Source of the DNA: a virus
Lineage: Duplodnaviria; Heunggongvirae; Uroviricota; Caudoviricetes
Direction: 5' to 3' (one strand)
DNA length: 7,100 nucleotides
IMG/VR virus record: IMGVR_UViG_2684622619_000011
The position numbers are program-made. How positions within the stretch are numbered: the stretch's first letter is position 1; every line of letters starts with the position of its first letter. Shown here in pieces: positions 1 to 3,000 of this stretch.

Positions 1-3000
1 TTATTATCATTTTGCGGGTCCTTTCCGGCGATCCGACAGGTTACGGGGCGGCGACCTCGCGGGTTTTCGCTATTTATGAAAATTTTCCGGGATCCATGTC
101 CGGTTTCTCTTCAAGTTAACTATATGAAAAATATAAAAACAGGTCTTCTGTGAACCGGACATGAACAAAAAACAGACATGTAAACCGGACATGACCGGTT
201 TTGTTGTGATTGTGAGGTGAGAGTTTTTGCGAGGTGAGGAGTGGCTACGCAGACTGAAGTTGCCAGGCATTTAAGTCTGACCGATCGCCAGCTTCGCAGA
301 TTGCAGAAATTGCCGGGTGCCCCGATATCGAATAAGCGAGGGCAACTGGATCTGGATGCCTGGCGCGATTTTTACATATCGTATCTGAGGAGAAGTAAAA
401 ACGATGTGCCTGATGGCGATAGCGAAGACGACTATGAGGAGAAATTGCTTATTGCCAGATGGGAACTGACAGCAGAACAGGCTGTTACACAGCAGTTAAA
501 AAANNNNNNNNNNNNNNNNNNNNNNNNNNNNNNNNNNNNNNNNNNNNNNNNNNTTAAAAAATGAGGTGTCAAAAGGAAAACTGATTGACACCGGGTTCTG
601 TATTTTTGCCCTCAGTAAGCTGGCAATGGCGTTATCCAGTACGCTTGATTCCATCCCTTTATCCATGCAGCGACAGTTTCCTGATTTAACACCGCGCCAT
701 CTTGACCATCTGAAAACCCTTATTGCTAAGGGGGCAAATCAGTGTGCGCGGGCAGGGGATAAATTACCGGATTTACTTGATGAATATATCAGAGCAACAA
801 CTGAATAATATGATGAGCGCTGTCACAACTGCATTACAGCCCCTGATAAGGGCATTGCCGGTGACGCCAGTTGAATGGGCTGATCAAAATTATTATCTGC
901 CTAAAGAATCTTCATATGGTGAGGGCGAATGGAAAACGCTGCCATTCCAGATCGCCATCATGAACAGTATGGGGAATGATCAGATCCGCACTGTTAATCT
1001 GATTAAATCTGCCCGTGTTGGCTATACAAAGATGTTGCTGGGGGGGGGGCGGGTATTTTATTGAGCATAAATCCCGAAACAGTCTGCTTTTTCAGCCCAC
1101 GGATTCTGCCGCTGAAGATTTTATGAAGTCTCACGTGGAGGCGACGATTCGGAACGTGCCATGCCTGAAAGACCTTTCCCCATGGCTGGGTCGTAAACAT
1201 CGTGACAATACTCTCACGCTGAAACGCTTTTCATCGGGCGTCGGTTTCTGGTGCCTGGGCGGCGCTGCCGCCAAAAACTACCGTGAAAAATCCGTTGACG
1301 TGGTCTGCTATGACGAACTTTCCTCGTTCGAGCCGGATGTCGAAAAAGAGGGCTCGCCAACCCTGCTGGGGGATAAGCGTATTGAGGGGTCGGTGTGGCC
1401 AAAATCCATTCGCGGCTCGACGCCTAAAATCAAAGGCACCTGCCAGATCGAAAAAGCCGCTAACGAGTCGGCGCATTTTATGCGTTTTTATGTGCCCTGC
1501 CCGCACTGTGGGGAGGCGCAGTATCTGAAATTTGGCGATGAGTCCACGCCTTTTGGGCTTAAATGGGAGAAGGACAGCCCTGAAAGTGTTTTCTACCTCT
1601 GTGAACATCATGGCTGCGTGATCCATCAGTCTGAACTGGACCAGAGCAACGGGCGGTGGATCTGTGAAAACACGGGCATGTGGACCCGTGACGGTCTGAC
1701 GTTTTTCAGCGCCCGGGGTGATGAAATTCCGCCGCCGCGCTCCATCATGTTCCATATCTGGACGGCGTACAGTCCGTTCACCACCTGGGTACAGATTGTC
1801 TATGACTGGCTGGATGCACTGAAAGATCCCAACGGCCTGAAAACCTTTGTGAACACCACGCTGGGCGAGACCTGGGAAGAGGCCGTGGGCGAAAAACTCG
1901 ATCACCAGGTACTGATGGATAAGGTGGTGCGTTACACGGCGGCGGTGCCTGCCCGGGTGGTTTATCTGACGGCGGGCATTGACTCGCAGCGAAACCGTTT
2001 TGAGATGTATGTCTGGGGATGGGCTCCGGGAGAGGAAGCCTTTCTGGTGGATAAAATCATCATTATGGGGCGTCCTGATGAGGAAGAGACGCTGTTACGT
2101 GTGGATGCGGCGATCAACAAAAAATACCGCCATGCGGATGGCACCGAAATGACTATTTCCCGTGTCTGCTGGGACACCGGGGGGATCGATGGTGAAATTG
2201 TTTATCAGAGATCAAAAAAACACGGTGTTTTCCGGGTGCTGCCGGTAAAAGGCGCATCTGTCTATGGCAAGCCGGTGATCACCATGCCAAAAACCCGCAA
2301 TCAGCGGGGCGTGTATCTGTGTGAAGTGGGAACGGACACCGCAAAAGAAATTCTCTATGCCCGTATGAAAGCCGATCCCTCGCCTGCGGATGAAGCCACG
2401 TCGTATGCCATCCGTTTTCCTGATGATCCGGAGATTTTTTCGCAGACAGAGGCGCAGCAACTGGTGGCGGAAGAGCTGGTGGAGAAGTGGGAAAAAGGAA
2501 AGATGCGTCTGCTGTGGGATAACAAAAAGCGGCGTAACGAAGCGCTGGACTGCCTGGTGTATGCCTACGCGGCATTACGTGTGTCCGTGCAACGCTGGCA
2601 GCTTGATCTGGCTGTACTGGCAAAATCCCGGGAAGAAGAGACGACCCGGCCAACCCTGAAAGAACTGGCAGCGAAGCTGTCCGGAGGAGTGAATGGTTAC
2701 AGTCGCTGAACTGCAGGCGCTGCGTCAGGCGCGCCTTGATTTATTAACCGGTAAACGGGTGGTGTCTGTCCAGAAAGATGGTCGCAGAATTGAATATACG
2801 GCGGCTTCTCTGGATGAGCTTAACCGGGCGATCAATGATGCGGAGTCGGTACTGGGGACAACCCGGCGTCGCCGTCGTCCGCTGGGAGTGAGGTTATGAA
2901 ACGAACGCCTGTCCTGATTGATGTGAACGGCGTTCCGCTTCGTGAGAGTCTCAGCTACAACGGGGGCGGTGCAGGATTTGGCGGGCAAATGGCGGAGTGG

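Follow-up and report, generated by a model that had tools for sequence, protein, structure and literature searches.

A 50-N gap in the nu1 gene of a lambda-like prophage sequence probably marks the ISEc8 site of Sp4/Sp14-type prophages

The packaging module and its interrupted nu1 gene

The window, by which we mean the whole 7,100-nucleotide stretch that was analysed (IMG/VR record IMGVR_UViG_2684622619_000011), holds the start of a phage packaging and head-gene region. Based on the annotation of relatives, its gene order is cosN, nu1, A, W, the portal gene B, the protease gene C, D, a truncated E, and the start of V; the features that matter here are collected in Table 1. As part of the whole explanation developed below, we consider it very probable that the window comes from a defective lambda-like E. 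coli O157:H7 prophage of the type represented by Sp4 and Sp14 of strain Sakai, and that it is the cos/nu1/A/W/B/C/D head-gene module of that prophage. At the left end, positions 1 to 90 are matched at 98 to 100% by many lambdoid phages, and the interval from cosN to nu1 contains three ACCGGACATG repeats. Gene A is annotated as “frameshifted” in TR01, F8092B, and PV15-279. The idea that the G-run in gene A is a sequencing error peculiar to the window was rejected, as the 10-G run is found in both TR01 copies of the locus and in F8092B.

Table 1. Features of the cos-nu1-A region, in window coordinates
Feature	Position	Strand	Remarks
cosN cohesive-end sequence GGGCGGCGACCT	45-56	+	Window 37-62 compared with lambda 1-25; start of the packaging module
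nu1, 5' part (terminase small subunit)	241-503	+	Codons 1-87 plus two bases of codon 88; the final 8 bases are the left 8-mer
TTAAAAAA, left copy	496-503	+	Left target-site duplication of ISEc8 in the Sp4-type copy
50-N spacer	504-553	.	ISEc8 site in Sp4-type prophages; empty in Sp14-type prophages
ISEc8 junctions at nu1 (other genomes)	503 and 554		Position 503 continues into GCGTACAGCC...; ...GTACGCTTAC continues into position 554
TTAAAAAA, right copy	554-561	+	Right target-site duplication
nu1, 3' part	554-808	+	Codons 86-169 of the intact gene; stop TAA 806-808
Terminase large-subunit gene A	780-2709	+	Overlaps the end of nu1; +1 frameshift at the 10-G run 1040-1049

The window contains one N-run only, of exactly 50 N. 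It is free of non-N ambiguity codes, in which it differs from the old EDL933 record AE005174, considered as a possible source, with its gaps and more than 6,000 ambiguous calls (PMC4132626). Searches for the gapped sequence itself, by the product of ORF 241-564, by a pattern with the 50-base gap in IMG/VR, and by two scans of species-representative genomes, gave no match. An earlier note on this sequence had pointed out that the same 8-mer stands on either side of the gap, and this is the case: both copies read TTAAAAAA, and the suffix/prefix overlap of the flanks is exactly 8. With both strands counted, the 8-mer occurs twice in the window, against an expectation from base composition of about 0.05 per strand. 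The probability that the 8 bases after an arbitrary gap equal the 8 bases before it is about 1.8e-5, and thus the pair is not a product of chance.

As it stands, the frame of nu1 is broken by the 50 N, and it is intact only when the flanks are collapsed on the 8-mer. Overlapping the flanks on TTAAAAAA yields a 510-nt open reading frame (ORF), from the GTG at 241 to the TAA at 806-808 (169 codons plus the stop), which reads ...AVTQQLKNEVSKGKLIDTGFC...; a plain zero-length join without the overlap runs into an immediate stop (LKN*) and was rejected. The collapsed ORF is identical at 510 of 510 bases to the coding sequence of WP_000235436.1, a “terminase small subunit,” and the proteins are identical too. 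Taken separately, window 241-503 is identical to that coding sequence and also to ECs_1101 of Sakai Sp4 up to the insertion sequence (IS) described below, and the 3' part carries, in genomes with the IS, the annotation “terminase small subunit, incomplete, missing N-terminus.” Against Pfam PF07471 (Phage_Nu1; cut-off 30), the collapsed ORF reaches 67.9 bits, with residues 49-150 falling on profile positions 62-163 of 164. Against lambda Nu1 (NC_001416 191-733), BLASTP gives 46% identity over 92 aa, covering lambda residues 86-177, with zero gaps across the join (E = 1e-26); the N-terminal 48 or so residues lie outside both the Pfam and the BLASTP matches. In lambda-type small subunits, the N-terminal part forms a winged helix-turn-helix that binds repeated cosB sites. 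Two claims of the earlier note, namely that collapsing the gap gives an in-frame join and that the result aligns to lambda Nu1 without an indel, are therefore borne out by the 169-codon ORF, its full match to a natural gene, and the gap-free alignment.

The nu1 junction in other genomes

A search with the 6.5 kb on the right-hand side of the gap led to TR01, where the match starts exactly at a 5'-truncated “terminase small subunit” pseudogene that lies directly downstream of an IS66-family ISEc8 transposase. TR01, F8092B, and Sakai Sp4 all read CAGCAG-TTAAAAAA, then GCGTACAGCC...2,438 bp...GCTGTACGCTTAC, and then TTAAAAAA-TGAGGTG, and the IS of F8092B is identical to that of TR01. The element at nu1 encodes tnpA, tnpB, and a DDE_Tnp_IS66 transposase (PF01527, PF05717, and PF03050, the last at 355.9 bits). 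In Sakai, where the 2,438 bp are 1187389-1189826 of NC_002695.2, it is annotated as “ISEc8 Family: IS66” at 1187387-1189826, inside prophage Sp4, where it separates ECs_1101, a 91-aa N-terminal Nu1 fragment that meets its stop four codons into the IS, from ECs_1105, the C-terminal fragment. Out of 5,426 complete genomes, ISEc8 together with its nu1 flanks was found in 292 complete E. coli genomes, Sakai, TR01, and F8092B among them; a genome was counted if one match covered at least 80% of a query consisting of the IS and 500-base nu1 flanks, of which the IS alone makes up 71%. The close matches to the window are all O157:H7, and genomes with nu1::ISEc8 also carry a near-identical IS-free copy of the Sp14 type.

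How well does the locus fit an IS66-family insertion? The 8-bp direct duplication that such an insertion leaves is present, as the TTAAAAAA pair, in the window as well as in TR01, F8092B, and Sakai. The IS66 genes tnpA, tnpB, and transposase lie between the duplications at the homologous loci; in the window this interval is N only, and the window itself holds neither IS ends nor IS sequence. Terminal inverted repeats GTAAGCG at both ends were not found in the homologous loci, where the left end starts GCGTACAG, without GTAA, and only the right end is canonical (...CGCTTAC).

The uninterrupted junction is present in 1,142 complete genomes, and the best-scoring of these, including one read base by base (...acacagcagTTAAAAAAtgaggtg...), have a single TTAAAAAA. 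Complete O157:H7 genomes match both flanks at 100% and cover a 701-base query in a span of 643 bases, the 58 fewer being the 50 N plus one 8-mer. Collapsing the gap thus reproduces the uninterrupted reference, as a gap of zero length would lead one to expect. A gap of zero length should also come without any alternative allele that carries extra sequence, and here such an allele exists, in the form of the ISEc8 insertion in the 292 complete genomes and in 5 IMG/VR loci. Among 120 IMG/VR loci, 114 are IS-free and ungapped and the 5 just mentioned have ISEc8 at the junction; IMG/VR draft contigs that match the IS either span it or extend 196 to 803 nt into it. The window keeps both 8-mers, and two retained 8-mers are the signature of the interrupted allele or of a fork between alleles.

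Origin of the gap

Short direct repeats on both sides of an N-gap are a classic sign of a transposable element at which an assembler failed. In total, the observations outlined above are best explained if the gap is the ISEc8 site in nu1 of an Sp4/Sp14-type prophage, standing either for a missing insertion or for an assembly fork due to the IS, and we regard this overall explanation as very probable. In the proposed sequence of events, ISEc8 would have transposed into codons 86-88 of nu1 and generated the 8-bp TTAAAAAA target-site duplication. The two copies in TR01 indicate what an assembler would then have faced. Read rightwards, they share sequence to the last A of TTAAAAAA (position 503) and continue with G in the IS-bearing copy and with T in the intact one; read leftwards, they share sequence back to the first T of TTAAAAAA (position 554), beyond which the IS-bearing copy has C and the intact copy has G. 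We posit that the contig ends at 503 and 554 are the last and first bases common to IS-bearing and IS-free copies, that the assembly graph would fork at these two points, that the source assembly was presumably unable to resolve the fork, and that a scaffolder, a reference-guided orderer, or a curator may then have linked the arms by a spacer fixed at 50 N. The length of the spacer is itself uninformative, and on this reading the gap is no harmless artefact of zero length.

A fork at 503/554 would explain why both ends are flush with the 8-mer, unlike the IMG/VR drafts that run into the IS. That the contig ends fall on the exact points of divergence of the two copies marks the 8-mer pair as a transposon footprint and not as a chance overlap of contigs, and it is highly likely, in our judgment, that the pair is the footprint of ISEc8 and that the IS caused the gap. 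What counts against the overall explanation is that the window has no IS and that both contig ends are flush at the 8-mer.

Which copy does the scaffold represent? The two TR01 copies, one with the IS and one without, show a single base difference (position 91) in about 7.2 kb; apart from this base, their identity begins about 700 bp upstream of the junction and extends through the end of the window. The window has G at position 91, as does the IS-bearing copy of TR01; the intact copy of PV15-279 also has G, which makes this position a poor copy marker, and the variants at 10, 14, and 29 differ between strains, not between copies. Assignment of the window to either copy by single-nucleotide differences was attempted and failed, as only position 91 differs in TR01 and it is unreliable. 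Because the copies are nearly identical, the window by itself cannot show which of them was scaffolded. The arms as a whole are closest to IS-bearing copies: the left arm is identical to those of Sakai Sp4 and F8092B at 503 of 503 bases, and the best match of the right arm in the complete-genome collection is the IS-bearing copy of F8092B, with 9 mismatches that all fall in 6820-6999. Given these matches, and given that assemblers usually read through the intact path (as in the 114 of 120 IMG/VR loci), we lean toward ISEc8 lying physically between these flanks, in an Sp4-type copy from which 2,438 bp are missing. Against this inclination stand the IS-free copies, with 100% identity on both flanks, in 1,142 complete genomes and in the same 114 IMG/VR loci, and the physical locus behind the scaffold could be the intact one. 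If the copy is of the Sp4 type, nu1 would be a split pseudogene, consisting of the 91-aa N-terminal fragment with its stop four codons into the IS and a C-terminal remnant, and packaging of the DNA that carries cos would depend on terminase provided in trans by an Sp14-type prophage, as has been proposed for Sakai.

The principal alternative, which we hold to be possible though on the unlikely side, is that the scaffold stands for the prophage without the IS, of the Sp14 type. The arms would then be adjacent, the length of the gap would be -8, and Nu1 would be intact at 169 codons; the IS-bearing copy elsewhere in the genome would fork the graph and break the contigs, and the remaining 8-base overlap would be unmergeable and be filled with a default 50 N. 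The full identity of the collapsed sequence to an intact RefSeq coding sequence agrees with this, as does the greater abundance of the intact junction (1,142 versus 292 complete genomes, 114 versus 5 IMG/VR loci). Flush contig ends are a prediction of a fork between copies, and short-insert read pairs linking the arms would presumably derive only from the intact copy. Nothing in the window positively assigns it to Sp14, however, since the copies are indistinguishable there; the intact path is one that assemblers usually read through, as the 114 ungapped IMG/VR contigs attest, and the best overall matches of both arms are to IS-bearing copies. Moreover, with two copies of a repeat collapsed into one, the other copy would still be misrepresented. 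Even if the scaffold is the Sp14-type copy, the break would have been caused by the IS-bearing one.

These considerations bear directly on the remaining claims of the earlier note. Its proposal that nothing is missing is unsafe with ISEc8 at exactly this site in 292 complete genomes. Its description of nu1 as an intact gene of about 169 codons is correct insofar as that gene exists intact in nature; that it is intact here is unsafe, and would hold at best for an Sp14-type copy. A chance short overlap of contig ends, to which it had traced the N-run, is not the best explanation, as the break matches both edges of the transposon footprint to the base.

The right end of the window offers a second sign of switching or confusion between paralogues, in that the allele of the V gene changes between 6738 and 6820. 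Across 6666-6738 the window has the Sp4/Sp14 allele at 10 of 10 informative sites, and across 6820-6999 it has a different lambdoid V allele at 9 of 9 sites; no complete genome has this combination at 99% identity or more. A 54-mer and a 111-mer from 6720-7009 have matches in 49 and in 18 + 3 contigs, respectively, and those contigs carry other V alleles, with at most 98.8% identity (most about 97-98%) over the part of 6666-7100 that they cover. The right end was accordingly rejected as a lineage fingerprint: V alleles are very mosaic, and no relative was identified from it. Could the allele change be real, and the gap hold something other than standard ISEc8? The source strain would then carry an unseen recombinant Sp4/Sp14-type prophage, with a true V switch within 6739-6819, and the gap might contain, say, another element or a rearranged form of the IS, in either case at the same TTAAAAAA target. 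We think this very improbable; if true, it would make nu1 a hot spot for transposition.

Two further readings are also very improbable. In one, the gap hides content other than ISEc8, either 50 genuine bases that were left unsequenced or some other insertion at this position. An N-run alone does not tell what it replaces, and an 8-bp duplication also fits other elements that make 8-bp duplications; yet a frame shift would follow from an insertion of exactly 58 bp (the 50 and the duplicated 8), no such insertion occurs in the 1,142 and 292 genomes or the 120 IMG/VR loci, and ISEc8 is the sole insertion observed at the site. In the other, the gap is a purely technical one of zero length, produced by a chance 8-base overlap of contigs in a source genome that has no mobile element here and lacks nothing; collapse does restore the frame and match the relatives, but both contig ends would have to fall on the known ISEc8 boundaries by chance (about one in thousands per position, in a 7-kb window), and the close matches are all O157:H7, with nu1::ISEc8 recurring in the 292 complete genomes.

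The choice among these readings has practical consequences. If the gap were silently closed, a known pseudogene would look like a terminase gene that is intact, and a defective prophage would appear more competent for packaging than it is. In a genome with both copies, neither a short PCR across 450-620 nor read mapping over the collapsed join would give a clear answer: from a typical O157:H7 genome, two products are expected, a short one and one of about 2.5 kb. More generally, direct repeats at N-gaps are possible target-site duplications, and this should be considered before any closure in silico.

Comparison with phage lambda, ISEc8 of pO157, and the Sakai prophages

The organization of the region is that of lambda. 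The cosN sequence in Table 1 equals the first 12 bases of lambda, and in both cases nu1 lies directly downstream of cos and overlaps A (191-736 and 711-2636 in lambda, against 241-808 and a start at 780 in the window, with cosN at 45-56). The differences lie in the details: the putative cosB repeats of the window are ACCGGACATG and not the R sites of lambda, the collapsed Nu1 has 169 aa against the 181 aa of lambda Nu1 (NP_040580.1), and its N-terminal 70 or so residues, corresponding to the DNA-binding part in lambda, have no BLASTP similarity to the lambda protein.

The element at nu1 in the relatives is close to canonical ISEc8 as found on pO157 (NC_011350.1 75477-77918), with 99.9% identity over the element and the same three ORFs. 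The pO157 copy is flanked by an 8-bp target duplication, GTTCAACG, and the nu1 copy likewise has one of 8 bp. The canonical element is 2,442 bp long. The nu1 copy, at 2,438 bp, is shorter by the four bases, GTAA, with which the left terminal repeat begins.

The intact counterpart is the Sp14-type nu1 (WP_000235436.1; NZ_AP018488.1 2687168-2687677; TR01 2595915-2596424), whose cos and upstream sequence are identical to those of the window. It differs in having one TTAAAAAA and no gap, where the window keeps both 8-mers.

The interrupted counterpart is Sakai Sp4 (NC_002695.2 1187381-1189834), which shares with the window the gene, the insertion site, the TTAAAAAA on both sides, and the downstream order A, W, B, C, D, truncated E, V. 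Three differences separate them: Sakai has the IS where the window has 50 N, the G-run in gene A numbers 9 in Sakai and 10 in the window, and the V gene of the window changes to another allele after about 6740. The biology of this locus is already known. Asadulghani et al. (2009, PLoS Pathog; PMC2669165) reported that nu1 of Sp4 is disrupted by ISEc8, that Sp4 and Sp14 have the same Nu1 protein and the same cos site (Figure S8 legend), and that Sp4 DNA is packaged though its own terminase is missing, and proposed the Sp14 enzyme as the packager, such that Sp4 nu1::ISEc8 is likely rescued in trans by an identical terminase.

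Head and tail genes

Irrespective of the state of nu1, the window prophage carries defects in its head and tail genes. Only a 5' remnant (264 nt) of the major capsid gene E remains, annotated in relatives as "incomplete, missing C-terminus," and this remnant abuts the tail gene V; thus, about 2.5 kb (i.e., the rest of E, FI, FII, Z, and U) has been deleted from the window prophage. These genes are retained in intact relatives, such as PhiR12_1 and several IMG/VR contigs. By informative-site comparison, the 5' part of V is itself a two-part mosaic, matching the Sp4/Sp14 allele (that of the IS-bearing and IS-free O157:H7 prophage copies) at 10/10 informative sites in 6666-6738 and another lambdoid V allele at 9/9 sites in 6820-6999. 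No match of at least 99% to 6600-7100 was found among complete E. coli genomes, the best being 98.2%. The mosaic reflects either a rare recombination event or a switch of the assembly path from one paralogous prophage to another.

Features of the window and of homologous loci
Feature	Position	Strand	Location or basis
Variants T, G, C	10, 14, 29		just upstream of cosN
ACCGGACATG copy 1	95-104	-	between cosN and nu1
ACCGGACATG copies 2 and 3	154-163, 184-193	+	between cosN and nu1
10-G run	1040-1049		within terminase large subunit gene A
E remnant	6425-6691		5' remnant of major capsid gene
V mosaic, two-part	6666-7100		5' part of major tail gene V
Tail gene V	6673 onward		abutted by E remnant
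ISEc8 left end in nu1	2063 (L007, F8092B); 2550 (L006, TR01); 1187387-1187389 (Sakai)		homologous loci, outside the window

The terminase genes

In gene A of the window, a run of 10 G's causes a +1 frameshift, such that the open reading frame at 723-1064 ends and the downstream frame runs on to 2709. The run is likewise 10 in F8092B and in both copies of TR01, where gene A is annotated as "frameshifted"; in Sakai Sp4 it is 9, the frame is restored, and gene A is annotated as an uninterrupted CDS. The intact copy of PV15-279 also has 9 G's, yet its gene A is annotated as "frameshifted." In the PhiR12 phages, GGGAGTCGCCGGG stands in place of the run. The tract may genuinely be prone to slippage, or its length may be a homopolymer error introduced by long-read assembly.

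In the homologous loci, the ISEc8 in nu1 measures 2,438 bp, against 2,442 bp for the canonical pO157 element, whose initial GTAA is missing from the nu1 copy. The Sakai annotation sets the start of the IS 2 bp into the left 8-mer (the left copy of the target-site duplication). The footprint can therefore be read in two ways: as an 8-bp duplication with a 4-bp terminal deletion, which is family-typical, or as a 4-bp TTAA duplication with two substitutions. Damage to the left end may be the reason for the stable inheritance of this copy.

The cos region

Sakai Sp4, the IS-bearing copy of F8092B, and the intact copy of PV15-279 share the three window variants upstream of cosN, whereas both TR01 copies carry C, A, and T at these positions. 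The differences separate strains, not the paralogous prophages within a strain, a pattern suggestive of concerted evolution among the prophage copies.

From cosN toward nu1, one inverted copy of ACCGGACATG is followed by an A+T-rich stretch and two direct copies. This layout is like that of lambda cosB (R3, an IHF site, and then R2 and R1), but the repeat word differs; a non-lambda word would fit with an N-terminal part of the window Nu1 that, judged by sequence, appears unrelated to that of lambda.
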